Source: an uncultured Fibrobacterota bacterium
Lineage (GTDB): Bacteria; Fibrobacterota; Chitinivibrionia; Chitinivibrionales; CAYFVL01
Assembly (NCBI GenBank): GCA_964586285.1
Contig: CAZPHU010000001.1
Span: 63,463-127,462 of the forward strand
Length of the DNA stretch: 64,000 bases
Direction of reading: 5' to 3'
Positions within the stretch are counted from its first letter, which is position 1. Each line of letters opens with the position of its first letter. Of this stretch, positions 1,967 to 51,212 are shown piece after piece. The notes beneath the pieces are model-generated. The model ran no database searches. It saw nothing but the letters and a program-made list of their open reading frames with translations, and was not told the origin of the DNA. A program made the translations under genes and the position numbers.

Positions 1967-3133
1967 TTGCAAGCAGGGTGGCAGCGCAAAGCAAAAGATT
2001 TATTCTGGCATACTCTTTATTATTGTGGAGGATTCAATCTTTTGCATTCTTTGAATGGTAATGCGAAGATTCTCATGTATCACAGGTTCAGCGAAAAGCC
2101 GTCTTTCCGAAAAATTAGTTTGCAGACGTTTGAATCGCAACTACGCCTGATAAAAAAACATTTCGAAATTATATCGCTTGGGGAATTTGTATGCTCTCTA
2201 AAGCGCGGCATCAGTCCTGGTTCCAATACGGTCGTACTGACTTTTGACGACGGATATCAGGATTTTTATTATTATGCTTTTCCCTTGTTGCAAAAGTATA
2301 GCCTGCCTGCAACTCTTTTTGTGACGACCGATTTTATTGACGGGAAAATGTGGATGTGGCCGGATGTGCTTGAGTATGCATTTTTACACACTCATAAGCG
2401 AACGATTCATTTACCTTTGGGGAATATTACTTACCGCTTCATGCTTGATTCCTATATATCTCGAATCAACGCATGGAATACGATTGCCGATCATTGCCTA
2501 AAAGTGAGTAACCTTGACAAATTTGTAATCATCGACACTGTTACTAGAATATGTGGTGTGCAAATACCGCAATACCCAGTATCGGACTACCAGGCATTGA
2601 ACTGGGATCAGCTGCGATACATGTCACATCATGACATAGAAATTGGTTCGCATACAGTTACACATCCGATACTCAGTAAAATGGAAAAAGCTGAGAACCT
2701 ATCATATGAGATAAACGCTTCCAAGAAAAGGATTTCCGATTGTCTTGATGTTGATGTAAATTCCTTCGCCTATCCAAACGGGAATTTAGGAGATTATAAC
2801 ATGCTTGCAAAACAGGCCATAAAGAAAGCCGGCTATGAATGCGCGGTGGTAAGCTATCCCGCTGCCCCCGGGCCGAATACGGATTCTCTTTTCGAATTGG
2901 GACGCAGTTCAGTTGGGGAGGATATCGTTTGTTTCAAAAAGAAAATCTATAATGTGGAAAAACCATATATACGCTTCTTTTCCCCCGGGTTGAGCACTCA
3001 TGATTTTCGCAATACCCATAACCCGCTGATTGAAACTCAACCGGACAGGCGCACCGAAAAGTCAAGCGACAGGCATTTTTCTTTAAACATGATTTCTTCA
3101 AAAAACAAAAAATCAGCTCAGAGGAACGTATGA
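1967..3133 (+). CDS. Polysaccharide deacetylase (NodB / CE4 family)
   Basis: NodB motifs are present: LTFDDGYQDFY (TFDDG), GSHTVTHP (HxxxH) and AYPNG. The TTG start is preceded by GAGGGGG. The stop overlaps the next start (ATGA). Confidence 0.85.
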   Translation: MQAGWQRKAKDLFWHTLYYCGGFNLLHSLNGNAKILMYHRFSEKPSFRKISLQTFESQLRLIKKHFEIISLGEFVCSLKRGISPGSNTVVLTFDDGYQDFYYYAFPLLQKYSLPATLFVTTDFIDGKMWMWPDVLEYAFLHTHKRTIHLPLGNITYRFMLDSYISRINAWNTIADHCLKVSNLDKFVIIDTVTRICGVQIPQYPVSDYQALNWDQLRYMSHHDIEIGSHTVTHPILSKMEKAENLSYEINASKKRISDCLDVDVNSFAYPNGNLGDYNMLAKQAIKKAGYECAVVSYPAAPGPNTDSLFELGRSSVGEDIVCFKKKIYNVEKPYIRFFSPGLSTHDFRNTHNPLIETQPDRRTEKSSDRHFSLNMISSKNKKSAQRNV

Positions 3134-6107: not shown

Positions 6108-6266
6108 ATGACTGAGAAGTCTGTTGATTCCAGCCGCCTTTTCCGTGGCCGCCCAAACAGAAAAAACGACATCGAAAGAGATGATGTCATAAGCCTGAAG
6201 ATCGATTTAGAAGTACTCGATACCGAAGAGCTGTATAGGAAATATTTCTTGATTGCTAAGAAGTAA
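6108..6266 (+). CDS. Small hypothetical protein (52 aa)
   Basis: The ATG at 6108 is preceded by AGGAGG at a good distance. The product, MTEKSVDSSRLFRGRPNRKNDIERDDVISLKIDLEVLDTEELYRKYFLIAKK, belongs to no family I recognise. Confidence 0.3.
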   Translation: MTEKSVDSSRLFRGRPNRKNDIERDDVISLKIDLEVLDTEELYRKYFLIAKK

Positions 6267-6412: not shown

Positions 6413-6656
6413 TATAAACGTAGATATTGACATTATTTTGGCAATACTATAGTCCTCTTTTTGCCTCTGGTTAAAATGAGCGGTATCCTCATTTCAAACT
6501 TGAAGAGAAACTACATAATCAATTTTGGAATCAAATCTTCAGTGGATATCCGGTTAAATTCGACATTTTTCATCTAAATGTTCTTTTTACCAGGGGTAAA
6601 TTACATAATTCTTGAAAATCAAGAAAATAAACAGCACCCATATAAAAGGAGATAAT

Positions 6657-7985
6657 ATGCCATTGATCCAGCAACGCGAAATGGAAATTACCCGTAAGAT
6701 TCATCCGGAGCATAACAAATCTCACTGGCGCGATTGGAGATGGCAGATGAGACATGCAATAAAGGATATCGAAACTTTCGAAGAGCTTACCGGGATTAAA
6801 TTCACCGAAAAGGAAAAGAAGGAATATCATAAGGTCTTAGAGAAGTTTCCTCTCTCAATTACTCCATACTACCTGAGTTTGATTGAAAAGGATAATTACA
6901 AATATGATCCTATTTTTCTGCAATCCTTTCCATCTATTCATGAGCTTCAAATTGATTTAAATGATCTTCGTGACCCTTTGGCCGAGGACAAGGACAGCCC
7001 GGTTCCCGGAATCACTCATCGTTATCCGGATAGAGTGCTGTTTCATGTCAGTAATACCTGCTCCATGTATTGTAGGCATTGTACCCGAAAGCGTAAGGTC
7101 GGCGATATGGATTCGATTCCCGGTTCGGAAGAAATGAAACAGGGTATCGAATATATCAAAAACACTCCGATGGTAAGAGATGTATTGCTCTCGGGAGGAG
7201 ATCCTTTCCTTTTGTCCGATAAGACACTTGACTGGCTTCTCGGTGAACTCAGCGCAATAGAGCATGTTGAAGTCATACGTATTGGGACAAGAACCCCGGT
7301 TGTTCTTCCCTACCGAATAACCGATGAACTGGTTGAGGTACTCAAGAAACATCACCCTGTTTGGATCAATACACATTTTAACCATCCACGCGAAGTTTCG
7401 GCCGCATCCAGGGAAGCTTTGCGCAAGTTGGCCGACGCCGGAGTTCCACTTGGCAATCAGACGGTTTTACTTGCCGGAGTAAATGACTGCCCTCGCATTA
7501 TGCGACGCCTGGTACATAAGCTGGTGGCCAATAGAGTGCGCCCGTACTACCTTTATCAATGTGATCTGTCGGAAGGTCTTACTCATTTCCGCACCCCTGT
7601 AGGTAAAGGTATCGAAATAATCGAAAGTCTGATCGGGCACACAAGTGGGTTTGCCGTACCTACATATGTAATTGACGCTCCTGGTGGCGGCGGAAAAATC
7701 CCTGTTATGCCTCAGTACATGATTTCGTTGTCTACCAATAAGGTTGTGCTGAGAAACTATGAGGGAATGATAACAACATACAAAGAGCCCGATTCTTATG
7801 AACCACAGTTCTGTGATCGTAACTGCGAGACCTGTAAGCTTCAATTGAAACTTGAAGGAACCGAATCCGAAGACGCGAAAAGTATCGGCATAGAAATGCT
7901 TCTGGCCGATCATGACGACACAATTTCTCTTGTCCCCGAAAATAACGATAGGATGTCTCGACGCGAAGACGATTCGGAGGATTAA
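6657..7985 (+). CDS. ablA: L-lysine 2,3-aminomutase (radical SAM, PLP-dependent)
   Basis: The radical-SAM motif [11 protein letters not shown] is present, with strong overall KamA-like sequence ([37 protein letters not shown]). The ATG at 6657 lies 5 nt after AGGAG. Confidence 0.9.
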
Positions 7986-19461: not shown

Positions 19462-20811
19462 CTACAAATCAGCCCCACGTGATGCAATAAGATCTCTATA
19501 AAAAAAGGCCGAATCTTTAAGGGTCCTTTTAAGCGTCGTGAAATCTACGTGAATCAATCCGAAGCGCTCCTTATAGCCCTGTGCCCATTCGAAATTATCC
19601 ATTATCGACCAATAGAAGTAACCTCTCATATCGATGTTTTCATCCGTTGCCCGCCGAAGATTTTGCAAATACCGAGCCATAAAATCTATTCTTCCCTTAT
19701 CATGGACATTGCCGTCAAGGCTGACCCAGTCGCGCATAGAGATCCCATTTTCCATTATGTACATGGGCATCTTATAGCGCTCATGTATAAAACGAGGCGT
19801 CCAGTACATTGATTCCGGCACCACGTACCAGTTAAGTCCGGTCATCGGAAATCCGGGACTAAAAGGTATATCTCTGGGCTCTCCATTCTCCCCCGCCCGG
19901 GCAGTGTTGCCGTAATAGATATTCACGCCCAGAAAATCTATCCGCTCGGAGATAACCTTCAGATCATCCTGGGGAAATGAAATCATACGATCTCCGAAAA
20001 CTTTCCCCTCATCCGGATAACGACCGAATACCACAGGATCCAGCCACCATGAGTTGCTCCACAAGTCATCGGAGTGAGTCTCAAACATCTTTTGACGCGC
20101 AGCCTGGATGTTCTGCTCGGTTTCATCCTGCGGTATCGTATTTACCGGCGCAACCACATAACCCACATTAGCCGGGCGACGCGCAAATGCCCGGATTGTC
20201 TGAACACTCTTCCCATGCGCCAGGAGAACATGATGGGCCAGACGAACGAGTTCGGAGATTTCGTACTTCTGCCCGGGAGCATGTGCCCCGTTGTGGTATC
20301 CACATTCGACAAACACCTGTGGCTCATTGAATGTCATCCAGTTGGTTACACGATCCGACAGCTTCTCGACCACAATTTTTGTGTACTGTGCAAACCAGTC
20401 GGCACTGCATCGATTGAGCCATCCTCCCCTGCAAAACAGCTCATGTGGCATATCCCAGTGATACAGTGTCACATAAGGATCTATCCCCTTCTCAAGCAGA
20501 CTGTCTACAAGCCTGTCGTAAAAATCCAGCCCTTTATGATTTACCGCTCCCGTGCCCGCCGGCAAGACTCTCGGCCAGCTGATTGAAAACCGATAGGCCC
20601 CAATGCCAATCTGTTCCATTAACTGAACGTCTTCTTTATATTTATGGTAGTGATCGCAGGCGACGTTACCATTCTCATTCCCAAAAATGGCTTGAGGCTT
20701 CCTGCAGTGAACATCCCAGACAGATACACCTTTGCCGTCCTCAAAGGCAGCGCCTTCTATCTGGTACGACGATGATGCTGCTCCCCAGACAAACGATTCC
20801 GAAAAACTCAT
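19462..20811 (-). CDS. GH1 beta-glucosidase
   Basis: The start FVWGAASSSYQIEGA, the acid/base motif TFNEP and the nucleophile motif YIMENG are all present. Length is 449 aa. Confidence 0.9.
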   Translation of the reverse strand: MSFSESFVWGAASSSYQIEGAAFEDGKGVSVWDVHCRKPQAIFGNENGNVACDHYHKYKEDVQLMEQIGIGAYRFSISWPRVLPAGTGAVNHKGLDFYDRLVDSLLEKGIDPYVTLYHWDMPHELFCRGGWLNRCSADWFAQYTKIVVEKLSDRVTNWMTFNEPQVFVECGYHNGAHAPGQKYEISELVRLAHHVLLAHGKSVQTIRAFARRPANVGYVVAPVNTIPQDETEQNIQAARQKMFETHSDDLWSNSWWLDPVVFGRYPDEGKVFGDRMISFPQDDLKVISERIDFLGVNIYYGNTARAGENGEPRDIPFSPGFPMTGLNWYVVPESMYWTPRFIHERYKMPMYIMENGISMRDWVSLDGNVHDKGRIDFMARYLQNLRRATDENIDMRGYFYWSIMDNFEWAQGYKERFGLIHVDFTTLKRTLKDSAFFYRDLIASRGADL

Positions 20812-28838: not shown

Positions 28839-29819
28839 TCATGATTCCAACTTAAGCATTTGCGCCGCCCGATTATCCAGATACTCCGTAAGACCTCTTG
28901 GTATCCGAGACATCATGCCCGATTCCTCCCACACCTCCGGGCTTTCCATGCACAGATAGAGTGTGGTTTGTGCAGCCCTCCTTTCCACCTCCTCCCGGAT
29001 CGCCCGGTAAAAAGCAGTTCGCACAGGTCTCACATATCGATATTTGCGGTCTTGTCCAAGAACCAGCTCTCCCGAGAAAAGCGGCAGATGCATCAATTGT
29101 TTTTTGAGACGGCTCTTAAGCTCCGGCATCGATCGAAACGCTCCGACACTCCACCATGCGATTCGGGACGGATCGCCTATAGTGTCTAAAATGCGGTTGA
29201 CTACCATTCGGTAATCGGGTTCCCACTGAGCATACCAAACCATCGGGTCGAAATGGAAAGCCACCCAGAAGCCCTGCTCTACACACCATCTGGCTGCCTT
29301 CAAGCGCTCATCCAGGGAGCTTGTACCAGCTTCAAGCACTTGGATCATTTCCGGAGTGTTTATCGAAAACCCAACCACTACCTTCTCCTTATGTCTGATA
29401 TCTTCAAGCAAGTGGACGAAGGTACTCTTCTTGGTTTTAAACTCAACCAGCACATTGGCATAGGGCTCCAGAAGGGATGCGATCCTCTTACATATTCCCA
29501 GTTTGGGCTCCAGGTACAAACTGTCGGCGAACTCACCCGTTCCGAATCGCACCACCCCCGAACGCGAGGCCATTTTTTCTCTTATCTCGTGCTCCATATC
29601 ATTAAGATTGGTATAGCAGACCTGATGGTCGTGATTGAAGTAGGCCTGAAGCACGCAGTAGGTGCAATACATGCCGCAGCCTGTAACCGGTGTTATTATC
29701 TGATATCCGCAACAGATATAATCCCCGGTGGTTCCCGGGCAGGGTTTCCAGAACTCGCCTTCGAAGCGCTTGCTCTCCAGGATGTTTCTTTCACGTATCA
29801 GATGTTGGCACGGTTTCAA
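28839..29819 (-). CDS. Spore-photoproduct-lyase-family (SplB/COG1533-like) radical SAM protein
   Basis: KPCPGTTGDYICCGYQIITPVTGCGMYCTYCVLQAY contains a CxxxCxxC cluster in the context typical of SPL-family proteins. Length is 326 aa. Confidence 0.7.
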   Translation of the reverse strand: MKPCQHLIRERNILESKRFEGEFWKPCPGTTGDYICCGYQIITPVTGCGMYCTYCVLQAYFNHDHQVCYTNLNDMEHEIREKMASRSGVVRFGTGEFADSLYLEPKLGICKRIASLLEPYANVLVEFKTKKSTFVHLLEDIRHKEKVVVGFSINTPEMIQVLEAGTSSLDERLKAARWCVEQGFWVAFHFDPMVWYAQWEPDYRMVVNRILDTIGDPSRIAWWSVGAFRSMPELKSRLKKQLMHLPLFSGELVLGQDRKYRYVRPVRTAFYRAIREEVERRAAQTTLYLCMESPEVWEESGMMSRIPRGLTEYLDNRAAQMLKLES

Positions 29820-30027
29820 ACTTCGTCCTTTTGTTTTTGCAGTTGAGCACGCCGAACAAAAATACGTCTAAGCAACAAACATTTGCCATAACCGTATTTT
29901 TCAAACAGTTTTGTTTTGCGATGAAACTAAAACAATGAATTATTTTACATGACACATTGGAACAGATTTTGGTTCAAACCGATCCTTAAAAACTACTTCG
30001 GTTGCTTTGAGGTGGAGAGAGGTAGCT

Positions 30028-30783
30028 ATGTTTAATCTCGTTGTCGGACCGGGGGTAAAAACGGCGGCACTGTTTATGTCAGTTATGGCGACTCTTGCCT
30101 TTGGTGCTCCCATGATAGAGGTGGACAGTGCCGATTACAACGTTGGTGTTATCCAGGAGGGTAGTGTCAAGGTTGTGAAGCACGATTTCAAGATCCGAAA
30201 CACGGGCGACAAACCGTTGAAGATCGAGAAAGTGAGCCCCGGCTGAGGCTGCGCAGTGATCGGATTCGATTCGATTATCCCGCCCGGTCGGGTGGGAACA
30301 GTGAGTCAACAAATCGATATCAGCAATATGCATGGCGGTAATTTCAAAAAAGGAGTGACCGTCAAATCCAATGCTAAAAACCATAACATTTTACGTCTGT
30401 ATCTGGGTGGATCGATAAAGCCGTTTGTCGGAGTGGATAAAAGCTATATTCGGCTTAAAAGCACGGCAAACGATTCAGAGATAGTAAAACTTGAATCTCA
30501 GAAGAGCGATTTGAAAATAAAAGAGGTGATTTTCAATCCGGACAAAAGCGATCACAGCACGCCTCTCTGGGCTGCAAATACGCCGCTTGTCATGAATTAT
30601 TCCCTGAAAAAGGAGCCCGAGGTCAAGGGTAGCGGAGGGTATGAGAAGTACACGCTTATCCTTAAAACTGCCTCACCGGTGGATTTTACGCGCCATGGAA
30701 GGTTTCTGATCAAGACGAATCACCCCAAACGTAAGGAGATTCAGATCAGAGGAATGATTCAGGCGAAAAGCGAACACAGGTAA
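30028..30783 (+). CDS. DUF1573-type secreted protein with a single in-frame TGA (30244-30246). It is either a candidate selenoprotein or a pseudogene.
   Basis: The two track ORFs (30007-30246 and 30256-30783) share one frame. The joined product has a signal peptide and reads NTGDKPLKIEKVSPG-[TGA]-GCAVIGFDSIIPPGRVGTV, which matches the DUF1573 signature NTG..PL.I..V..SCGCT...I.PG..G.I. Confidence 0.5.
30279..30296 (+). other. Candidate SECIS-like hairpin CCCGCCC-GGUC-GGGUGGG
   Basis: The hairpin has a 7-bp stem (one G-U pair) and a GGUC tetraloop, the same apical loop sequence as the E. coli fdhF SECIS. The stem starts 32 nt after the UGA. Confidence 0.3.
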
Positions 30784-30807
30784 GTCGTTTTTTTCGGCAA
30801 GATGCAG

Positions 30808-30866
30808 GGACGCGCGGCTGCGCGTCCGAAAGACCCACGGCCGCGCAGCCTCAAAAGCGCGGCCGT
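30808..30866 (+). terminator. Two consecutive GC-rich hairpins after the DUF1573 gene, with an alternative pairing between them
   Basis: Hairpin 1 is GGACGCGC-GGCT-GCGCGTCC (30808-30827). Hairpin 2 is ACGGCCGCGC-N10-GCGCGGCCGT (30837-30866), followed by TTGCATATT. GGCTGCGCG (30816-30824) can instead pair with CGCGCAGCC (30842-30850). Confidence 0.35.
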
Positions 30867-30969
30867 TTGCATATTAACGCTGTCGTCGATCAAAGACACG
30901 GCGCCGGCGTATCAGTATGATTTGATCCGTTTTTTTCCGGATAAACAATCGTAAAAAGGGGGAATCCGG

Positions 30970-31929
30970 GTGAGCAGAAAGGCGTTTACTCATCTTTTCG
31001 GACCTGTGAACTCAAGGCGGCTGGGAATAAGCCTTGGCGTGGATGTTGTTTCTTTCAAGACCTGTTCTCTGGATTGTATTTACTGTGAGTGCGGTGCTAC
31101 AACCTTACATACGCTGCAGCGGGCCGAATATGTACCGGTTAGCGAAATCCTCGGTGAGCTTGAGCAGTACCTTAGAGACAAGCCTAACCTGGATGTAATT
31201 ACATTTGCGGGAAGTGGTGAGCCGACACTAAACAGCGGTCTGGGAGAGATGATCGAGTTTGTTAAAACCAACTACCCTCGGTATTCAGTCGCTGTTTTAA
31301 CCAACAGCACCTTGCTGCACCTTCCAAAGGTGAGAGAGGAACTTTTGGCCGCCGATTTCGTACTTCCCTCTCTGGATGCGGTTTCGCCGGAAGTGTTTGG
31401 AAAGATAAACAAACCGGCCCTGCATCTTACCCCCCAAATGGTTGTGGAGGGGCTGAGAGAGTTTTCTCATCAGTTCAAGGGAAATCTTTGGGTGGAAGTT
31501 TTCGTAGCCGAAGGAATAAACGACTCGGAGCAGGAACTGGGACTGCTTAAGGATGCTCTTCTGAGCATGAAACTTACCCGAGTCCAGCTCAACAGTCTCG
31601 ATCGGCCCGGAACCTGCGGCTGGGTTGCTCCGATTTCTCCCCAAAAACTCGAACAGATAGCCGCTTTCTTCCAACCTCTTCCGGTAGAGATTATCGCGCG
31701 CAATATGAAAGAAATACCCGTTCACACCACGGATGAGCTTGATACAGCCCGCGTGTTGGCGTTTCTGTCGCGACGGCCCGCGCCGGTAGAAGAGCTGGCG
31801 ACAGCTCTTGGAGCCAGCATCAATGAAGTCGTTCGATTCCTCATATCTCTGGAAAAGCAGGGAAAAGTCTCCCCCCACCGAATCGGTACGAGAACGATTT
31901 ATAAGCTGGAGAATGCGCAAAAGGAGTAA
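30970..31929 (+). CDS. Radical SAM protein with a C-terminal winged-helix-like domain
   Basis: LFGPVNSRRLGISLGVDVVSFKTCSLDCIYCECG contains a CxxxCxxC cluster. The GTG start lies 6 nt after GGGGGA. The C-terminus, LSRRPAPVEELATALGASINEVVRFLISLEKQGKV, looks like wHTH. Confidence 0.8.
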   Translation: MSRKAFTHLFGPVNSRRLGISLGVDVVSFKTCSLDCIYCECGATTLHTLQRAEYVPVSEILGELEQYLRDKPNLDVITFAGSGEPTLNSGLGEMIEFVKTNYPRYSVAVLTNSTLLHLPKVREELLAADFVLPSLDAVSPEVFGKINKPALHLTPQMVVEGLREFSHQFKGNLWVEVFVAEGINDSEQELGLLKDALLSMKLTRVQLNSLDRPGTCGWVAPISPQKLEQIAAFFQPLPVEIIARNMKEIPVHTTDELDTARVLAFLSRRPAPVEELATALGASINEVVRFLISLEKQGKVSPHRIGTRTIYKLENAQKE

Positions 31930-32103
31930 CTGCTCGTTTTTTCTCCACACCTAACAGTGGGTTTGAGGTTTAAAAATCAATATCAATACCGAATCTTGCC
32001 GATTGTTCAGGGATTATTAATGAAATTTCAGCGCACTGCCGATATACTTAGATAAGCCGGTTTTGTCGATTATCTTCGCTGTATTAAGGTTCAATAACAA
32101 TTG

Positions 32104-35049
32104 ATGGTGTTACAGGTGCGGAAAATTCATTCCATACTCTCTTATGGACAAATATCTCTATGGGCACTGTTAGTACTTTCTCAAACAGCCTGGGGTGGGC
32201 TGTCTTTTGACGGACTCACCGACATACGCGGTCGCAACGGCGGCCAAAGTGTCGCGAGCTTCCTGACCCTTCCGGCCGGCGCCGCTCTTCTGGGCTCCAA
32301 TATGATCGCCGTCACAGGAACATCCGACGCCTCCGATGTATATTGGGCTCCTGCGAACACCGCGTTTTTTAACGAACACACTTTCGGTGCATCCCATCTG
32401 GAGTGGTTGATGGGCCTTAGAAAAGAGTTCGCGGCGGCGAGTTTCTTTTTGCTCGACATAGGTACCATTGGAGTATATTCACAGGTTTTTACGGTCGGAC
32501 CATTTGATCACGCCCGTACAATCGAGGAAACCAGGTCTCAACCTCGAGCGATGGAATACACCGTAGGAGGCTCATTCAGCCGCATGCTGATACCGCGAAC
32601 CCTGGCGGCCGGGCTGCAAATTTCATTTCTGGAAAGCAGACTGGACAACCGCGTCGCACGCGCGCTGAGCGCCGACATGGACATCCAACACAGGCTCTTG
32701 GAGCAGCTAACATATCGCTTCTATGCTAAGCACATAGGCTCTCCCCTGACCTACTCAAACGAATCCGAACAGCTTCCCTTTGTGACTGGTTTTGCCTCAA
32801 AATTTTCATCCCGATCACACGAGGATACCCTTAAACCCGACTTTATTACCTGGGAGATCTCGGGCGGTGTTCGAAAACAAATAGATGAGCCTTTGAAGGC
32901 GGCAATAGGAGCCGCCCTGAAACTCGGGCCCCATCTCACCTTCCGTTCGGGCTACGAACACTCTTACGGCTACGAATACTCACTGGAAGGTTTGAGTGCT
33001 GGGCTGGGACTGGATTACAAAAGATACGGCATAGATGTCGGCTGGAAAAATCAGTCGCGGGAGTTCGGGCCGGTATGGGCGGTGACTGTTCGTTACCGGA
33101 CCGAAGAGCTGATTCCCAAAAACGCCGAGGATTATTATCGCATAGCCCGCAAGCATCTTAACAAAAAACGCTACCGCTCGGCCGTCCGCTACGCAAAAAG
33201 ATCTCTCAGGGTAAACCCAAATTTCTGGCAGGCTCATCAACTTATCAATGAGACGATTTCTCTTGTACAAAGGAGCCGGGGTACCGAGATAGGATTGATC
33301 TATACGGGCAATATTGGCGGTCAATTTCTGCCTGTTGTCGCCGACGAAACCAGCCTGGGCGGTCTCAGCCGTATAGCATCGGTGGTGCAATCGCTTCGCC
33401 GAGCGTATCCGGTGTCCATCGCGCTGGAGACGGGTAACCTCATAAAAAAAAGATCTCACCCGCTGAAAGCGGCTGCTGCGGATACCTATCTCAGAGAGGT
33501 TGATTTTGACGCCCATGCTCTTGGTGAGGCGGAGCTTGCTTACGGAATAGAAGAATACGGAGGTACAACCGACGGATCGAAGGCAACCTTTGTCTGTACC
33601 AACTGCGGGGGTCCCGATTCGGACGACCTGATTCGCAGCCGTATTCTTACTCCCGGCAAGTATAGGATAGCCGTTCTTTCCGTGATAGATGATCAAAAAA
33701 ACAGTCAATTGGTAAGCTGCCGGAGCGCTCTTCGCAGCCGGCTTTCTCTTCCCGCGATCTCCTCAGCAGATTTACGTATAGTCATATTCCACGGATCTTG
33801 GGATGTGGTGTCGAGGCAAATAGGATCGTTCAAAGATATTGACATAGCAATAGCCGGATCGCTTGAACAGAAGTTTGACCTGCCTATGAAAATCGGCAAC
33901 ACAAAGATTTTGTCGGCCGGATCGCTTGGCCGTCATGTGGGGCTTCTTCGTTTGCGCTTTGACGAGAAGAAGAGCCTTATCGGTTTTTCCAACAAGCTCA
34001 TTCCGGTAACCTCCGACATCGAGCCAAACCAACGAATCGAAAAAGAGATCACCCGACTTACTGCACAGACAAATCTTATGGAACAGGGAAGCTCAATTGG
34101 AGTCGGAGGTAATTCCGATACCACCGGTCTGTTAACATTCCTCTCCGACCGTCACGGCAGACCTCATGTATTTCTCAAGGTGATGCGCAAACATGCCGAA
34201 TTTCCACTGACAACCGGCAAAAGCTCCTACGGATGCTACGCTTCGGCCTTTTCGACTGGAAAGATCGCCGCCGTTTCCGACACACAAAACGACAGCACCG
34301 CGATTATCATGGACTTGACTGGTTCGAACAAGCGCAAAACATCTTTACGTAAGGTTACTTCCCTGTCCTTTGGCCCCAGGGGTAAACACCTGTACGCGGC
34401 AACCCGCACCGACAGCTCATCATCATTATATCGAGTTTTTCAGGACGGTACCGATAGGACTCTTCTTTTAACCGGGCCCTATTCAGCTATCCGGAACCTG
34501 TCTTTTTCCCCCGAGGGTTTGCTGGCATTCAGCGCCTTCACCGAGGATCGTTATCATGTGTTCATTACAGATACCTCCTCATGGAAACCGCTGCGCATAA
34601 GCGAGGCTCGGGCCGATCATGTCGGGCCTTTGTTCAGTCCAAATGGGAGATATCTTTCATGGATGTCGGACGAATATAATTTCGGCGGCCGTAAAGACCT
34701 TTGGATACACGACAGGCATACAGGTATCACGGTACCCATAACGCGTAGAACAGCGCTTTCATCATATCGCTGGATCGACAATCGCAACATAGTATATGCA
34801 TCCGGTCAAAACATGCAGTCTCTGTATAAAGTCGACATTTTCAGTCGTGAAAGCTCCCCCCTGATTGCACGCAGAATCGACAAGCCTTATCAGGAGCACT
34901 CACCTCGGCTTCTGCGAACAGCCGGGGGATTGAAGATCGTTTACACCCGAGAATATCGTAATGGTAAACGCGAAATTTACATGGTAAATCCCGACGGCGG
35001 CGAAGAAGAAAGAATCGTAAACAGCGCCGGCTCCGACTGGCTGGAGTAA
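32104..35049 (+). CDS. Multidomain envelope protein: N-terminal beta-barrel-like domain, TPR, degenerate metallophosphatase/5'-nucleotidase-like domain, and C-terminal TolB-like PD40 beta-propeller
   Basis: It has a signal peptide. The N-terminal domain carries ASFLTLPAGAALLGSNM...ANTAFF, which is PorV/UPF0164-like. A TPR segment follows (YYRIARKHLNKKRYRSAVRYAKRSLRVNPNF). IGLIYTGNIGGQ and ETGNLI stand in place of the metallophosphatase HTND.HG and GD motifs. PD40-like repeats follow (SFSPEGLLAFSA, FSPNGRYLSWMS, REIYMVNPDGGEEERI). Confidence 0.65.
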   Translation: MVLQVRKIHSILSYGQISLWALLVLSQTAWGGLSFDGLTDIRGRNGGQSVASFLTLPAGAALLGSNMIAVTGTSDASDVYWAPANTAFFNEHTFGASHLEWLMGLRKEFAAASFFLLDIGTIGVYSQVFTVGPFDHARTIEETRSQPRAMEYTVGGSFSRMLIPRTLAAGLQISFLESRLDNRVARALSADMDIQHRLLEQLTYRFYAKHIGSPLTYSNESEQLPFVTGFASKFSSRSHEDTLKPDFITWEISGGVRKQIDEPLKAAIGAALKLGPHLTFRSGYEHSYGYEYSLEGLSAGLGLDYKRYGIDVGWKNQSREFGPVWAVTVRYRTEELIPKNAEDYYRIARKHLNKKRYRSAVRYAKRSLRVNPNFWQAHQLINETISLVQRSRGTEIGLIYTGNIGGQFLPVVADETSLGGLSRIASVVQSLRRAYPVSIALETGNLIKKRSHPLKAAAADTYLREVDFDAHALGEAELAYGIEEYGGTTDGSKATFVCTNCGGPDSDDLIRSRILTPGKYRIAVLSVIDDQKNSQLVSCRSALRSRLSLPAISSADLRIVIFHGSWDVVSRQIGSFKDIDIAIAGSLEQKFDLPMKIGNTKILSAGSLGRHVGLLRLRFDEKKSLIGFSNKLIPVTSDIEPNQRIEKEITRLTAQTNLMEQGSSIGVGGNSDTTGLLTFLSDRHGRPHVFLKVMRKHAEFPLTTGKSSYGCYASAFSTGKIAAVSDTQNDSTAIIMDLTGSNKRKTSLRKVTSLSFGPRGKHLYAATRTDSSSSLYRVFQDGTDRTLLLTGPYSAIRNLSFSPEGLLAFSAFTEDRYHVFITDTSSWKPLRISEARADHVGPLFSPNGRYLSWMSDEYNFGGRKDLWIHDRHTGITVPITRRTALSSYRWIDNRNIVYASGQNMQSLYKVDIFSRESSPLIARRIDKPYQEHSPRLLRTAGGLKIVYTREYRNGKREIYMVNPDGGEEERIVNSAGSDWLE

Positions 35050-35121
35050 GGCGCCGGCTTTCGACTCGGGCTTACAGGCGCAGAGAAAATGGCCGAGGGC
35101 TTTGCCGAATTCGGCGTACAC

Positions 35122-36579
35122 TCAAGCCAGGTATGTGGATGAGGCGGTGTCACCCCCGCGACCGGTCCAGTTGGTGTGAAAGAAACGCCCTCTGGGTTGA
35201 TCGAGCCTCTCGTAAGTATGGGCACCGAAATAGTCCCTTTGTGCCTGTATCAGATTAGCGGGAAGACGTCCCGTGCGATAACCGTCATAAAAGGCAAGCG
35301 CGGTTGAAAACGCCGGCACGGGTATTCCCGAAAGTGCGGCACGGCTTATTACCCGCCGCCAGGCATCCTGAGATTCATGTATGATATTTTTGAAGTAATC
35401 GTCCAGCAGCATATTGGTGAGATTTGAATTTTTATCAAAGGCTAACTTGATTTTGTCAAGAAACGCGCTCCTTATAATGCATCCGCCGCGCCACATAAGC
35501 GCAATATCCCCGTAGTTCAAGTCCCAACCATACTCACCGGCGGCCTGTCGAAGAAGCATATATCCCTGGGCGTAACTGACAACCTTGGAGGCCAGAAGGG
35601 CCTTGCGTATATCAACAATCAATTGCTCTTTATCACCATCAATTCCCGGAGTTGGGCCTTTTAAGATACCTGCAGCCTGCTCCCGTTCCTCTTTGAGGGC
35701 CGACAGAAATCTGGCGTATACGGCTTCGGCGATAAGTGTCAGGGGCATTCCGCCTTCAAGAGAGCTTATCGCAGTCCATTTCCCCGTACCCTTCTGTCCG
35801 GCACTGTCAAGTATTGTGTCCAGCGTGAATTCCCCTTTGTCGTCCTGATAAGACAGTATATCACGGGTGATCTCGATCAAATAACTGTCAAGATCTCCCC
35901 TGTTCCATTGGTCAAACACTTCATGCATCCGCTCGTTTGTTAATCCGAGTCCGGCTTTCATCAGATGATATGCTTCCGCGATAAGCTGCATGTCGCCGTA
36001 TTCGATGCCGTTGTGAACCATTTTGACATAGTGCCCCGCCCCATCCGAGCCGACCCACTCACAGCAGGCGGAACCGTCGGGAGCCTTGGCGGCGATCGTC
36101 TGAAAAATCTCTTTAACCAGCGGCCAGGCCCCGGCACTGCCTCCGGGCATTATCGACGGTCCCCTTCGAGCACCTTCCTCACCCCCGCTTACACCGGTGC
36201 CGATAAAAAGAAACCCCTTCTCCTCCAGGTAGCGGGTTCTTCGGATTGAATCCCGGTAGTTGGAGTTGCCTCCGTCGATGATAAGATCGCCGCATTCCAA
36301 ATGAGGCAGCAGCTGTTCGATAAAATCGTCAACCGCCTTGCCCGCTTTCACCATGAGCATGACCTTGCGTGGAGACTTAAGCCCCTTTATCATCTCCCCT
36401 ATCGAATGCGCCCCCAAAACATTTTCGTGCCCTTTAGCCGCACCGTTAATGAAATCATCCACTTTCGAAACCGTACGATTATATGCCACAACTTTATATC
36501 CGTTATCAGCCATGTTGAGAATCAGATTTTGTCCCATTACCGCCAATCCAATCACCGCGATATCAGCACGTTGTTGCAT
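35122..36579 (-). CDS. gnd: 6-phosphogluconate dehydrogenase (decarboxylating)
   Basis: IAVIGLAVMGQNLILNMADNGY and the rest are highly Gnd-like (GTGVSGGEEGAR, HNGIEYGDMQLI). The ATG at 36579 lies 6 nt after AGGAG. Confidence 0.93.
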   Translation of the reverse strand: MQQRADIAVIGLAVMGQNLILNMADNGYKVVAYNRTVSKVDDFINGAAKGHENVLGAHSIGEMIKGLKSPRKVMLMVKAGKAVDDFIEQLLPHLECGDLIIDGGNSNYRDSIRRTRYLEEKGFLFIGTGVSGGEEGARRGPSIMPGGSAGAWPLVKEIFQTIAAKAPDGSACCEWVGSDGAGHYVKMVHNGIEYGDMQLIAEAYHLMKAGLGLTNERMHEVFDQWNRGDLDSYLIEITRDILSYQDDKGEFTLDTILDSAGQKGTGKWTAISSLEGGMPLTLIAEAVYARFLSALKEEREQAAGILKGPTPGIDGDKEQLIVDIRKALLASKVVSYAQGYMLLRQAAGEYGWDLNYGDIALMWRGGCIIRSAFLDKIKLAFDKNSNLTNMLLDDYFKNIIHESQDAWRRVISRAALSGIPVPAFSTALAFYDGYRTGRLPANLIQAQRDYFGAHTYERLDQPRGRFFHTNWTGRGGDTASSTYLA

Positions 36580-36657
36580 TATCATCTCCTTTAAAGCAGT
36601 ATTTTTCATCTAATTTTATATAAAACTTTTCTGTTCCAAAGCTTCTGCGATCATCAC

Positions 36658-37788
36658 CTATTCCACAGAAAACCCAAGCCTTGAGAGCTGCGTGTGCTCA
36701 TTGGATTCCCGGGAAACGCCTTGGATTTTGTAGTGGCTGAATTCAAGACGCTTAGGGTAGTCCCGCCGCAAGGAATCAAAGTATTCTCCACGCTTTTTCT
36801 CGGGTATTCCCCCCAGGGCACGAAAATCCTTATCATCACGCATGATCGGATACGCATTTCGAACGGCTTCAGCTGCCGGATCGGTGGAGTTACTTAAATC
36901 GATCGTTTTCATTTCCTCGGATTTCAACGCATCGCTCATGCTCCAAACCGGTTTCTTGAAGAAAAACGCGCATGCCGACTCATAAATCATGGATGTCCCT
37001 TTCACCTTACCGTCATAAGAATATCCGGCAATATGTGGAGTGGCGATATCGGTGGCCTTAAGCGATTCTACACTGATATTGGGCTCGTTTTCCCATACAT
37101 CCATAACCACGCTGTTCAAACGATTTCTGTTTGCGCGCAAAACCTTTTCGTCGACAATCCTGCCTCTGCTGGTATTGATCAGGTCGGCATTTTTCTTCAT
37201 CTCCAATAAAAAACCGTTATTGACCATGTGGTAGGTCGCATCGTTGCCTTGCATGTTCAAGGGCACATGCAAGGATACGATATCCGATTCCCTTAGCACC
37301 TTCTCCAAAGGCAGGTAGCTGCTGCTTCCCGAAATTTTCTTTTTGGGCGGATCGTTGAGCAGACAGTGCATTCCTAAAGCCTGGGCATGGCGAAAAACCC
37401 GACTGCCGATGTTTCCGCACCCGATTATACCCAAGGAAAGCTCATGGACTTTCTTACCTCTCTTTTCGGCCAGCTCAAAAAGAGCGGCCGTCATGTATTC
37501 GGCTACTGAATCGGCATTGGAGCCGGGTGCATATGCAAAACCAATATTGTTCTGAGCCAGATAGTCCGTATCCACGTGATCGGTGCCGATCGTGGCGGTA
37601 GCGACAAATTTTATACCCGATCCTTCCAGCAGATTCTGATCAACGGTGGTGATCGAGCGAACAAGCAGGATTGTCGCCCCTTTTAAAACCTCCGGCTTTA
37701 TATCACGTCCCGGAAGTGTATGTACCTCTCCGAAATCCTTGAATGCTTCTTCTACAAAAGGAATATTAGCATCGGCAATTATTTTCAT
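36658..37788 (-). CDS. pdxB: 4-phosphoerythronate dehydrogenase
   Basis: The start MKIIADANIPFVEEAF..FGEV is PdxB-like. A D-2-hydroxyacid dehydrogenase NAD fold (GIIGCGNIGSRV) and a PdxB-type C-terminal dimerisation extension are present. Length is ~376 aa. Confidence 0.85.
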   Translation of the reverse strand: MKIIADANIPFVEEAFKDFGEVHTLPGRDIKPEVLKGATILLVRSITTVDQNLLEGSGIKFVATATIGTDHVDTDYLAQNNIGFAYAPGSNADSVAEYMTAALFELAEKRGKKVHELSLGIIGCGNIGSRVFRHAQALGMHCLLNDPPKKKISGSSSYLPLEKVLRESDIVSLHVPLNMQGNDATYHMVNNGFLLEMKKNADLINTSRGRIVDEKVLRANRNRLNSVVMDVWENEPNISVESLKATDIATPHIAGYSYDGKVKGTSMIYESACAFFFKKPVWSMSDALKSEEMKTIDLSNSTDPAAEAVRNAYPIMRDDKDFRALGGIPEKKRGEYFDSLRRDYPKRLEFSHYKIQGVSRESNEHTQLSRLGFSVE

Positions 37789-38055
37789 CATTCTCCCCTT
37801 CATCGATACTCAACCATTCAAAATACAGTTTTTCGTAAGCATTCAGGAAAAAAACTGCAAGAACTTTGTAAGTATTGTATTTTTTCCTAATGATAACTAC
37901 GTCACGACCGGTGAAAATCGAGACAAAATACCTTCGCGTTCATAAAAACACCCGGTTCAAGGTACATCCTTTCCTGGTGTAACAAGCCGATGCATACGGA
38001 CCGACACCGATGTGTGTGTGAATCTATAAAATAAAAGGATTTAGTTAGAATTTAT

Positions 38056-39009
38056 ATGAATAACGGACAAAAGATACGAAACGCCTTATATGGAGCAATT
38101 CTTGGTGATGCTCTGGGGGTTCCGGTAGAGCATTCGACCAGACAGGAACTTGCGCTGTGTGCGGTCAAAAACATGCTCGGTTACGGTCGATACGATCAGC
38201 CCAAGGGGACCTGGTCGGATGATTCTTCCATGATACTCTGTACCTGTGAAGCACTGTTAAAGGAATATAACCTTGATACGATCGCAAATGTTTTTGAGAA
38301 ATGGCTTTTCGAGGGATATTGGACTCCGTACGGTCATGTGTTTGATTCGGGTCTGACAACCGTCACCGCATTGGAGTCGATTCGTTCGGGAGCTGGTCCT
38401 CGCGAATCCGGACAAACCACAGTCGACGACAACGGCAACGGATCACTGATGCGCATTTTACCGGCTGCTTTATACTTTGCACGTCTGCCGCTGGATGAAT
38501 TCCTCAACCGTATCCACGAGATTTGTGCGATAACCCATGCTCATGCAAGGGCCCAGATTGGTTGTGGAATTTATTCATTAATCGTTCGAAACCTCTTACT
38601 TTCTCAATCCGATAAGCTCAATGCGGTTATGTCGGCTGTGGATTGTGCGGTTGAGTACTATCAGCGGCTTGAACCGTTTCGCAACGAACTGCGCCTGTTC
38701 TCAAGGATAACCGATCACAAGACAGCTGATCTAAAAGAGACTGCGATTAGATCATCCGGCTATGTGATTGATACGCTGGAAGCATCGCTGTGGTGTTTTT
38801 TACGTCATGACGATACCCGCTCGATTCTGCTCTCGGCCATTAATCTTGGACTGGACACCGATACCACCGGAACCGTAGCTGGAGGAATAGCGGGCCTTTA
38901 CCATGGACTGCAATCCATTCCTTCGGACTGGCTCAGCTCTCTTGCACGCAAAAGTGACATCGACCAGTTGATCGAAGCCTTTGCCCAAACCGTTGAAAAA
39001 CACCGCTGA
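38056..39009 (+). CDS. ADP-ribosylglycohydrolase family protein (DraG/YegU-like)
   Basis: GAILGDALGVPVE, WSDDSSM, GNGSLMRI and GLDTDTTGTVAGGIAG are classical ARH metal-site motifs. Confidence 0.85.
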   Translation: MNNGQKIRNALYGAILGDALGVPVEHSTRQELALCAVKNMLGYGRYDQPKGTWSDDSSMILCTCEALLKEYNLDTIANVFEKWLFEGYWTPYGHVFDSGLTTVTALESIRSGAGPRESGQTTVDDNGNGSLMRILPAALYFARLPLDEFLNRIHEICAITHAHARAQIGCGIYSLIVRNLLLSQSDKLNAVMSAVDCAVEYYQRLEPFRNELRLFSRITDHKTADLKETAIRSSGYVIDTLEASLWCFLRHDDTRSILLSAINLGLDTDTTGTVAGGIAGLYHGLQSIPSDWLSSLARKSDIDQLIEAFAQTVEKHR

Positions 39010-39020
39010 TCGGAGATCTA

Positions 39021-39955
39021 TGAAGCTGCCTAAAATTCGTGATTACGACTTACTAGTGTTGGGAGAGGTGCTGGTTGAATTCCGCTGCGACTGCAATATC
39101 GCTCTTTGCGACAGTTATCAAAAAGATATTGGCGGTTCGGATGTATACGTCGCTGCAACAGCCGCACGCCTTGGTTCCAACGTGTCATTTCTTTCTTCTA
39201 TTGCCCGCGACCCATTTCATGGTCTAATAAGGGAACGCTTTCTTTCGCAGGGAATAAATATCGACCATGTGGTTACGCGCGACGGATTTAATGGTATCTA
39301 CTTCGTCAGCAGCCGCAATCAGCTGGACCGTGAGTATCTGTTTCATCGCCCCGGAACCACAGCCGCTTACATCAGTCCGTCAATGGTATATGACAATCTC
39401 CTTCAGGACAGCAAGATTGTATACGCCGGCAGCGAGCTGCAGTCGGCTTCAAAAGCCGCCCGTCACGCAGTGTTCAAAGCCTTTCACGGGGCGCATATCA
39501 ACGATGTGATGGTGGCCTACGATCCAAACCTTCGCCTTCACAGATGGTCGCTGGATGATGCAAAGGAGAGTCTGTGGAGCGTTCTTCCTCTACTGGATGT
39601 CATTCTGCCGTCTTCTCCCGATGAGTCCAAGGCACTGTTTGGGTATGAACGACCATTGGATGTGATCGGGTTTTTATGGGATCGCGGGGTTTCCATAGTC
39701 GCGGTAAAGATGGGAAACGGGGGGTGTATGATAGGCTACGACGGGAAAGTAGAAGAATTCACCCCACCGCATGTACCCGAATCGGTAAATCATGTAGCAC
39801 TGATTGGATCGGCATTCAACGGCGCTTTTCTACACTCCATAGCCCGCGGACACGATCCTTTTACCGCCGCACAACTTGCCAACAGTGTTGCGCTTTTTAA
39901 GGGGCTTAGTGGAGACGGGATTTCATCTCTGCCTACTGAACAGGATCTGGAGTAG
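39021..39955 (+). CDS. PfkB-family carbohydrate/nucleoside kinase (KdgK/YegV-like)
   Basis: DLLVLGEVLVEF, GGSDVYVA and the C-terminal ALIGSAFNGAFLHSIARG (DTxGAGD-region variant) are present. The ATG at 39021 lies 11 nt after the ARH stop. Confidence 0.8.
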
Positions 39956-50228: not shown

Positions 50229-51212
50229 CTACTCTTTCGATGGATCAAGAGGAGAATCGGTGTTCAGATACTTTTGCACATAATCTTCAATCGCCTGCTC
50301 CAGACTCATACATTTATGATCACAGCCGGCATCACGAAGTTTTTGCATCGTCGCGCATGTGTAGTATTGATACTTGCCGCGAAGGTGCTCCGGCATCGGA
50401 ATGTAGCGAATATCAGGTTTTTTACCCACTGAAGAAAAGATCGCACGGGCCACATCGTTCCAGGAGCGAGCCTCTCCGGTACCGATATTGAAAATTCCGC
50501 CAATCTGGGGATTATCGTAAAAAAACATCGTCATGGCTACAGCGTCTTTGACATACAAAAAATCACGTTTCTGTTCTCCGTCGGCATACTCCTCACGATG
50601 CGATGAAAACAGATTCATGACACCTTCATCCCTGACAATCGGATATGCCTTGTTTATCACACTGCGCATATCCCCTTTGTGCCCTTCATTGGGACCGAAG
50701 ACGTTGAAGAATTTTAATCCTACGATCTTCTCAAGCCATCCCTCTTTCATTGCCAATAGATCGAAAAGGTGTTTTGAGTATCCGTACATGTTAAGAGGTC
50801 GCAGACTCGGCAGCAGAGCTTCATCATCGATATATCCCTGATCGCCATTCCCATAGGTTGCGGCGCTGGATGCGTAAACAAACCGACATCCGTTGGAAAG
50901 AGCCCAGTCGGCGATTCTTGACGTATACCTGAAGTTGTTTTCCATCAAATAATCGGCATTGCGCTCCGTGGTTGCCGAGCAGGCTCCCATATGGAAGATC
51001 GCCTCGAGTTCACCGGCAAAGGCACCTTTTTCCAGCGCATCGATAAACACCGACCGATCCAGGTAATTGCGAAACCTCAACGGCACCATGTTTCGCCACT
51101 TTTCAGATTCGCCAAGATGATCTACAATCAGGATATCTTCAATCCCTCGTTTGTTGAGTTCCCATACGATTGCACTCCCTATGAATCCGGCACCTCCGGT
51201 TACTACTATCAT
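50229..51212 (-). CDS. hldD: ADP-L-glycero-D-manno-heptose 6-epimerase
   Basis: MIVVTGGAGFIGSAIVWELNKRG, AIFHMGACS, YASSAATYG, NMYGYSK, FFNVFGPNEGHKG and FNIGTGEARSW align closely with E. coli HldD/RfaD as I recall it. Confidence 0.9.
   Translation of the reverse strand: MIVVTGGAGFIGSAIVWELNKRGIEDILIVDHLGESEKWRNMVPLRFRNYLDRSVFIDALEKGAFAGELEAIFHMGACSATTERNADYLMENNFRYTSRIADWALSNGCRFVYASSAATYGNGDQGYIDDEALLPSLRPLNMYGYSKHLFDLLAMKEGWLEKIVGLKFFNVFGPNEGHKGDMRSVINKAYPIVRDEGVMNLFSSHREEYADGEQKRDFLYVKDAVAMTMFFYDNPQIGGIFNIGTGEARSWNDVARAIFSSVGKKPDIRYIPMPEHLRGKYQYYTCATMQKLRDAGCDHKCMSLEQAIEDYVQKYLNTDSPLDPSKE

Follow-up and report, generated by a model that had tools for sequence, protein, structure and literature searches.

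Does the in-frame TGA codon at 30244-30246 of a 64,000-nucleotide (nt) stretch of DNA from an uncultured Fibrobacterota bacterium (contig CAZPHU010000001.1; the whole stretch is referred to here as the window) end a short open reading frame (ORF), or does it encode selenocysteine (Sec, U) in the middle of one longer gene? Our analysis indicates, with high confidence, that 30028-30783 is a single gene for an exported two-domain immunoglobulin (Ig)-like selenoprotein of the DUF1573/OS_HP2 type, and that the UGA is a genuine Sec codon. A first-pass annotation of the window had read the codon as Sec followed by a hairpin resembling a selenocysteine insertion sequence (SECIS). This reading is upheld by the occurrence of the UGA in more than 100 orthologues, by its pairing with cysteine in other homologues, by an excess of RNA structure found in UGA-type genes only and by covariation of the paired bases.

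Gene structure and protein architecture

The features of the predicted gene, all on the forward (+) strand, are listed below.

30028..30783 (+): full selenoprotein gene (predicted), 251 codons including the UGA; the stop codon is TAA at 30781-30783.
30028..30105 (+): probable signal peptide, MFNLVVGPGVKTAALFMSVMATLAFG followed by AP; hydrophobic N-terminus, with similar N-termini in homologues.
30115..30411 (+): DUF1573/OS_HP2-type Ig-like beta-sandwich domain with the U-G-C motif, residues 30-128.
30244..30246 (+): in-frame UGA, predicted Sec residue 73, at the column of the first Cys of C-G-C in Cys-type homologues.
30244-30252 (+): U-G-C motif, with the UGA as its first position.
30256..30278 (+): hairpin H1, whose 10-bp stem is capped by a UCG loop (30266-30268) lying 19 nt past the UGA; it codes for V-I-G-F-D-S-I-I.
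30279..30296 (+): hairpin H2, CCCGCCC-GGUC-GGGUGGG, a 7-bp GC-rich stem with its loop at 30286-30289; it codes for (I)-P-P-G-R-V-G.
30412..30780 (+): C-terminal second beta-sandwich domain, without Cys and with the conserved motif IKTNHP; it is kept in full-length homologues.

The ORFs 30007-30246 and 30256-30783 share an identical frame, their starts lie 249 nt apart, and they are separated only by the TGA at 30244-30246 and the codons GGC TGC GCA. The first-pass annotation had joined them into one product, and the protein profile is indeed continuous through the UGA. With U read as C, the Pfam family PF07610 (DUF1573) matched across the codon with 61.1 bits (cutoff 26.1, E = 1e-16), in excess of its gathering score, and residues 30-128 covered profile positions 1-96 of 98. 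The HYDIN/VesB Ig-like family PF22544 was also matched (E = 2.9e-7). Alignments with Cys-type homologues agree with the earlier assignment of the UGA to the first Cys of C-G-C. The peptide spanning the codon reads VSPG-U-GCAVIGFDSIIPPGR, the motif being flanked as PG-U-GC, and U-G-C stands alone in the mature protein, which contains no other Cys.

The ATG at 30028 is the likelier start codon, in preference to the TTG at 30007 where the ORF starts mechanically; direct reading of the sequence finds GGAGAGAGG at 30014-30022, 5 nt 5' of this ATG. The signal peptide proposed earlier is probable, given the hydrophobic N-terminus and its similarity among homologues. The protein is thus predicted to be exported, probably not as a lipoprotein.

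The standard genetic code is in use in the window, since TGA terminates 10 of its 38 long ORFs. Both ORFs that had been named before as examples of TGA as an ordinary stop (1967-3133 and 28839-29819) are among these ten. A six-frame scan of the window for other recoded genes, with an in-frame TGA and at least 50 codons on each side, found coding-looking flanks only at 30244.

Conservation of the UGA and its pairing with cysteine

The protein search returned few relatives (P-numbered below; L-numbered sequences are nucleotide loci). Seven full-length relatives (P0002-4 and P0007-10) have C-G-C at the motif. Two others, P0005 and P0006, start exactly at the Val that follows "x-G-C-T". Their contigs (L001 and L002) contain an upstream ORF, TGA, 9 nt and GTG, which is the arrangement of the window, and readthrough of these two genes gives KPG*GCTVVGFDSIIPPGRVGKV and RAG*GCTVVGFDSIIPPGRVGKV. 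The closest relatives in the genome collection were all Fibrobacterota metagenome-assembled genomes (MAGs). TGA occurs at the same column in L001, L002 and the MAG loci L003 (Chitinivibrionales), L004 (Fibrobacterota) and L012, while the MAG loci L005-L011 are of the TGC type. Taken together, the Cys-type homologues (P0002-4, P0007-10, L005-L011 and L013-L016) have TGC or TGT at the UGA column. The gene order in L004 is that of the window, namely g26234, trpD (64% identity), an aroD-like gene, a spore-photoproduct-lyase (SPL)-like radical S-adenosylmethionine (SAM) gene, the UGA-type DUF1573 gene and a radical SAM gene with a winged helix-turn-helix (wHTH) domain. By this shared order, the UGA-type gene of L004 is identified as the positional orthologue of the window gene. 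The relatives also make a Fibrobacterota origin of the window very probable.

Metagenomes were scanned with a pattern in which the UGA and the peptide frame were fixed through P-P-G only, the 3' arm of H2 being left free. At least 108 distinct UGA-type sequences were found. In all copies that are uncut by contig ends, the UGA is preceded by a coding frame and followed by a long open one, of 130 to over 199 codons where the contig permits. Protein identity to the window among the UGA-type sequences has a median of 33% and a minimum of 27%, and TGA-GGN-TGY is kept as the codons of the C-G-C motif in more than 100 sequences. The first-pass annotation had proposed a UGA-tolerant collection of homologues to look for Cys/Sec pairs at this column; the UGA side of such pairs is found in L001-L004, L012 and the at least 108 metagenome sequences. 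The scattered disruptions expected of a pseudogene are ruled out, as the frames are intact and no other disruptions occur in more than 100 orthologues.

UGA-type and Cys-type paralogues were observed side by side in two loci. L012 carries a UGA-type copy at 6130 together with two Cys-type copies, and L013 carries a Cys-type copy at 1425 and a UGA-type copy at 2488. Two UGA-type DUF1573 copies are found in L096 (5220-5263 and 6427-6470). Traces of hairpin H2 persist in the Cys-type copy of L013 (IIPPGGEG; CCUCCCGGUGGGGAAGGG), suggestive of a recent exchange of Sec and Cys.

Two adjoining hairpins follow the UGA

The first-pass annotation had described one GC-rich hairpin with a GGUC loop. Its coordinates were confirmed on the sequence, as were its distances from the UGA, with the stem of H2 beginning after 32 nt and the loop after 39 nt. 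H2 alone folds at -13.0 kcal/mol (z = -2.83), and none of 200 shuffled sequences was equally stable. A second conserved hairpin, H1, had been missed between the UGA and the GGUC hairpin. Folding of 30244-30320 showed that H1 and H2 directly abut, with zero unpaired bases between them; H1 alone has a free energy of -7.1 kcal/mol and H1 and H2 together of -20.3 kcal/mol.

In the minimum free energy (MFE) folds of the family, H2 was present in 97 of 102 UGA-type sequences. On the excess structure and the covariation described below, loss of the hairpin from orthologues that carry UGA is ruled out. G occurs within the first two loop positions in all 97 folds with H2.

One nucleotide difference touches H1. 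At position 8 of an independent Logan contig (L161), corresponding to window position 30276, a synonymous T-to-C change (ATT to ATC) converts the H1 pair 30258-30276 from G.U to G-C. The difference lies near the contig end and could be an assembly artefact.

RNA structure in excess of the peptide

Because Pro (CCN) and Gly (GGN) codons are complementary, a conserved P-P-G-x-x-G peptide gives some pairing by itself. Each sequence was therefore compared with its own synonymous recodings, weighted by the codon usage of the gene set (GC content at third codon positions, 0.74). In the 108 UGA-type genes z averaged -2.15 for H1, -1.76 for H2 and -2.34 for both hairpins, and +0.37 for the next 30 nt after the hairpins. 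For 14 Cys-type genes of the same spacing the corresponding values were +0.34 for H1, -0.37 for H2 and -0.67 for both. Uniform recoding gave stronger values than the codon-usage-weighted recoding. The excess structure is thus linked to the presence of the UGA, not to the peptide encoded. The explanation of the hairpin as a mere by-product of Pro and Gly codons is partly true; it was rejected on the recoding and the Cys-type controls, which show the excess in UGA-type genes only.

Covariation was analysed by counting pairs for the two-hairpin structure in 102 aligned sequences. The controls were 500 shuffles of the 3' partners, a control that ignores shared ancestry, and slides of the same partners by 1-3 columns. 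The results are given below.

Standard-pair cells: observed 83.4%; shuffled 77.7% (0/500 reach the observed value); slid 35-50%.
Cells changed on both sides: observed 114; shuffled 39 (0/500); slid 12-41.
Covariation score: observed 0.146; shuffled 0.082 (0/500); slid at most 0.081.

The middle pair of H2 occurs as UA (50), GC (11) and GU (5), corresponding to CCU/GAG (Glu), CCG/GCG (Ala) and CCG/GUG (Val). Its innermost pair occurs as CG (40) and UA (19), corresponding to CCC/CGG (Arg) and CCU/CAG (Gln). Covarying pairs in H1 are CG 83 / UA 12, CG 24 / UA 15 / GC 13 and CG 13 / GC 12 / GU 10. Changes of Val to Glu or Ala and of Arg to Gln occur in step with the Pro codons; the protein sequence shifts so as to preserve RNA pairing.

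Comparison with known bacterial SECIS elements

Bacterial SECIS (bSECIS) elements are described by a loop of 3-9 nt, a stem of 4-16 bp, G in the first two loop positions, a UGA-to-loop distance of 16-37 nt and an MFE of -7.5 kcal/mol or lower, and a subset of the elements lies outside this model (PMC13188914). Like the consensus element, H2 is a coding-region stem-loop 3' of the UGA, with a 4-nt loop starting G-G-U and a 7-bp stem; its loop size, stem, loop G and MFE (-13.0 kcal/mol) lie within this description. Across the family, 96 of the 97 folds with H2 agree with it in loop and stem size, and 80 of the 97 H2 hairpins reach the MFE limit and agree with the whole description other than spacing.

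In the SECIS of E. coli fdhF, the determinants of SelB binding are G23 and U24, together with a bulged U17, and the upper stem lies 11 nt from the UGA (PMC8659212). The likeness of the H2 loop to this element, proposed in the first-pass annotation, holds for the GGUC loop, in which G and U match G23 and U24, although as a resemblance of sequence only. It does not extend to the rest of the element, as H2 has no counterpart of the bulged U17 but a perfect 7-bp stem with one G.U pair, and its stem starts 32 nt from the UGA in place of 11 nt.

A member of the OS_HP2 family

In 2007 Zhang and Gladyshev identified six selenoprotein families in the symbiont metagenome of Olavius algarvensis, among them OS_HP2, short for "Olavius symbiont's hypothetical protein 2" (PMC1976440). 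OS_HP2 is absent from the Figure 5 legend of that paper and its SECIS is not shown there (PMC1976440). The Global Ocean Sampling (GOS) paper of 2008 lists OS_HP2 as pfam07610, UxC, with 2 sequences and 354 Cys homologs (PMC2398784); pfam07610 is DUF1573. Reviews of 2022 and 2026 list "DUF1573, UGC". The NCBIfam model NF041425, "OS_HP2 family (seleno)protein", was the only match of the window protein in that library (E = 1.2e-23, 83.3 bits), with profile positions 3-97 of 98 covered.

The gene is therefore a new member of a known selenoprotein family, not a new family. The first-pass annotation was mistaken in presenting it as a candidate new selenoprotein, as OS_HP2 (pfam07610, UxC) was published in 2007/2008 and is modelled by NF041425, and in the belief that DUF1573 was not among the described families, as the two reviews list it. 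The window member shares with OS_HP2 the PF07610 domain, the predicted Sec at the first Cys of C-G-C, giving U-G-C, and a coding-region stem-loop after the UGA. It differs from the published members in its Fibrobacterota-like lineage, those being from deltaproteobacterial Olavius symbionts, and in having a second, C-terminal beta-sandwich domain and a conserved radical SAM neighbour. Relative to the cited papers, two points are modestly new: how abundant the family is in metagenomes, and that its tandem-hairpin SECIS is conserved at a spacing of 38-40 nt.

Points against selenocysteine and alternative explanations

Several results weigh against Sec decoding of this UGA. Some concern the RNA. 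The first-pass annotation had cautioned that the spacing was at or beyond the usual limit, and this was accurate. The window has its H2 loop 39 nt from the UGA, and 96 of the 97 family folds with H2 place it at 38-40 nt, farther than the 16-37 nt of the bSECIS consensus; H1 fills the gap and abuts H2. H1 has a fitting spacing (19 nt) but no G at either of the two opening positions of its UCG loop, and it was seen in just 68 of the 102 family MFE folds. The search pattern fixed the P-P-G codons, with their CC dinucleotides, and so biases the 5' arm of H2. RNAalifold recovered just 5 consensus pairs from the 102 sequences, at -0.77 kcal/mol, a low recovery that probably results from shifted registers, bulges or internal loops in many sequences. 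Rfam gave zero matches at the gathering threshold over the whole window, and chance-level matches only at a permissive threshold over 30200-30360.

Other points concern the family and the decoding machinery. In the cited family papers OS_HP2 is a computational prediction, without demonstrated selenium in any member. Against NF041425 the window protein (83.3 bits) falls short of the curated cutoff of 100. Nine other UGA-type members scored 71-107 bits and only one of them passed, so that the curated model takes in just a core of a broader clade. Neither the 64-kb window nor some 1 Mb of DNA from related loci yielded a selA, selB, selD or tRNA-Sec gene. For the window, where the earlier annotation had likewise reported no sel genes, this is based on ARAGORN, whose output for the window and 12 related loci contained no tRNA, and on NCBIfam, which gave no match for the 10 window ORFs sized like selD, selA or selB. 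Over 161 loci ARAGORN found 14 tRNA/tmRNA genes, none of them tRNA-Sec, and crude scans of 1.05 Mb of DNA for signature motifs of SelB, SelD and SelA found nothing, a weak negative. A literature search on Sec decoding in Fibrobacteres/Fibrobacterota found nothing informative.

The alternative that survives best is readthrough of the UGA in an organism without Sec machinery, in which one of the standard amino acids (Cys, Trp or a near-cognate) is inserted, the hairpins stalling the ribosome or promoting the insertion in some other way. The machinery result for the window and the related loci, the H2 spacing outside the consensus and the status of the family as a prediction are in its favour. 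The UGA, however, aligns with Cys in a classic Sec/Cys pair, the H2 loop G-G-U-N fits the bSECIS loop pattern and the E. coli G23/U24 determinants, and the same pattern recurs in more than 100 sequences from many environments, as selenoprotein surveys report for OS_HP2. Readthrough of this kind is considered improbable.

Termination at the UGA is less probable still. The product would be a 72-residue N-terminal fragment, possibly with a separate product from the GTG at 30256. Gene callers split the gene in this manner in the window, L001 and L002, and TGA serves as an ordinary stop in other genes of the window. The callers restart at the GTG three codons past the UGA (30256-30783 in the window, 258-782 in L001 and 2971-3492 in L002), which yields orphan proteins of about 175 aa without a Pfam match (P0005 and P0006), plus a short upstream fragment. 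Such a split, however, would halve one beta-sandwich domain that is spanned by the Pfam profile and by the AlphaFold2 model described below. The second piece would have no signal peptide, the pieces are just 9 nt apart, and the TGA-GGN-TGY geometry is conserved as the C-G-C codons in more than 100 sequences.

The weakest alternative, a pseudogene or else a TGC or TGT misread in sequencing or assembly, draws on the single base that separates TGA from these codons and on an independent contig that does not reach the site, yet it is highly implausible given the same TGA in more than 100 independent assemblies with no other disruptions, the strong protein conservation on both sides of the UGA and the UGA-type-specific RNA structure that follows the codon. 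Neither event can produce the pattern, since more than 100 divergent sequences share the UGA with intact flanking frames. The contig in question, Logan contig L161 (SRR11308339), differs from window 30269-39875 at 3 of 9607 nt (99.97% identity); it starts 23 nt past the UGA and so cannot confirm the base call.

Fold and proposed mechanism

Sec decoding thus remains the preferred explanation of the UGA. Under this explanation the codon at 30244-30246 would be read by a bacterial SelB/Sec-tRNA(Sec) system, directed by mRNA structure within the coding sequence just 3' of the UGA, namely the abutting hairpins H1 and H2. H2, with its GGUC loop, would be the SelB-binding part of the SECIS. H1 would act as a spacer or accessory helix; its folding probably either brings H2 effectively closer to the UGA or lets H1 stack on H2.

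The AlphaFold2 model of P0002, the closest full-length Cys homologue (about 45% identical), is a confident one, its mean pLDDT (predicted local distance difference test) being 86.9. It consists of two beta-sandwich domains, with C-G-C (residues 74-76) in a turn between strands 65-72 and 77-81. Foldseek matched the model to ASH/Ig-like domains in tandem (those of HYDIN-type ciliary proteins, of CEP192 SPD-2 and of 2qsv, an uncharacterised protein from P. gingivalis), and no enzyme fold was among the matches; a sequence search of the PDB gave zero matches. The likeness to ASH and HYDIN-VesB-CFA65-type domains is that of tandem all-beta sandwiches of the same fold class. It holds at the level of fold only, with 7-14% identity and TM-scores of about 0.3 for the two-domain query, and no function is transferable. 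To our knowledge, none of these structural matches carries a redox or selenium centre.

By analogy with C-x-C and U-x-C motifs in general, U-G-C is most likely a periplasmic redox centre of the selenol/thiol-selenylsulfide type or a site of soft-metal binding. Placed where two beta-strands are joined by a tight turn, the motif would cycle between a selenol/thiol pair and a selenylsulfide, or would bind a soft metal. DUF1573 proteins have been detected in outer-membrane vesicles of Tannerella forsythia (PMC10682907), and an envelope location of the protein fits this occurrence.

Neighbouring genes

Directly 3' of the DUF1573 gene, 30970-31929 (+) encodes a 319-aa protein with a radical SAM domain and a C-terminal winged helix (Pfam Radical_SAM and DprA_WH), for which no NCBIfam family was matched at cutoff. 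The pairing of DUF1573 with this radical SAM-wHTH gene was observed in 10 related loci, nine of UGA type and one, L008, of Cys type (L002 3535-4500, L003 3246-4166, L004 6700-7635 and L008 6805-7752; also L086, L045, L094, L113, L118 and L157). Upstream and divergent from the selenoprotein gene lies the SPL-like radical SAM gene at 28839-29819 (-), which scores 73 bits against an SPL equivalog cutoff of 400 and is kept in place in 5 related loci (L094, L113, L086, L004 and L002) with 58-70% identity.

The next gene after the radical SAM-wHTH gene, 32101-35049 (+), encodes a 982-aa fusion of PorV/PorQ-like (88.9 bits, cutoff 90), UshA/5'-nucleotidase-like and TolB-like beta-propeller parts. NF041198, "UshA-like (seleno)protein", matches it only weakly (53.8 bits, cutoff 275), and it contains no in-frame UGA. 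The fusion also lies two genes 3' of the selenoprotein gene in L003 (4384-7245) and L157 (3484-6345).

Elsewhere in the window, genes for lysine 2,3-aminomutase AblA (6612-7985, +; 772.6 bits), a glycoside hydrolase family 1 (GH1) beta-glucosidase (19462-20811, -; 527.8 bits) and ADP-glyceromanno-heptose 6-epimerase (50229-51212, -; 394.4 bits) are assigned with confidence and are usable as taxonomic or metabolic markers.

Significance for the OS_HP2 family

In the window, as in all relatives examined, gene callers divide the gene, so that each of these loci is mis-annotated as a pair of hypothetical proteins. With its narrow cutoff, NF041425 would miss most of the UGA-type clade, and a SECIS that lies consistently outside the spacing rule of the predictors could be missed or under-scored. 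The two GOS sequences and the single example of the review greatly understate how common OS_HP2 is in environmental metagenomes. An exported Ig-like domain with U-G-C in a beta-turn is an unusual setting for Sec, already implied by the published family. A more tentative proposal, in which we place only limited confidence, is that OS_HP2 genes have a distinct tandem-hairpin class of SECIS, in which H2 lies at 38-40 nt and the folding of H1 brings it within reach or allows it to stack. The 37-nt rule would then describe a folded distance and not a distance in sequence, and Sec decoding may extend to this Fibrobacterota lineage.

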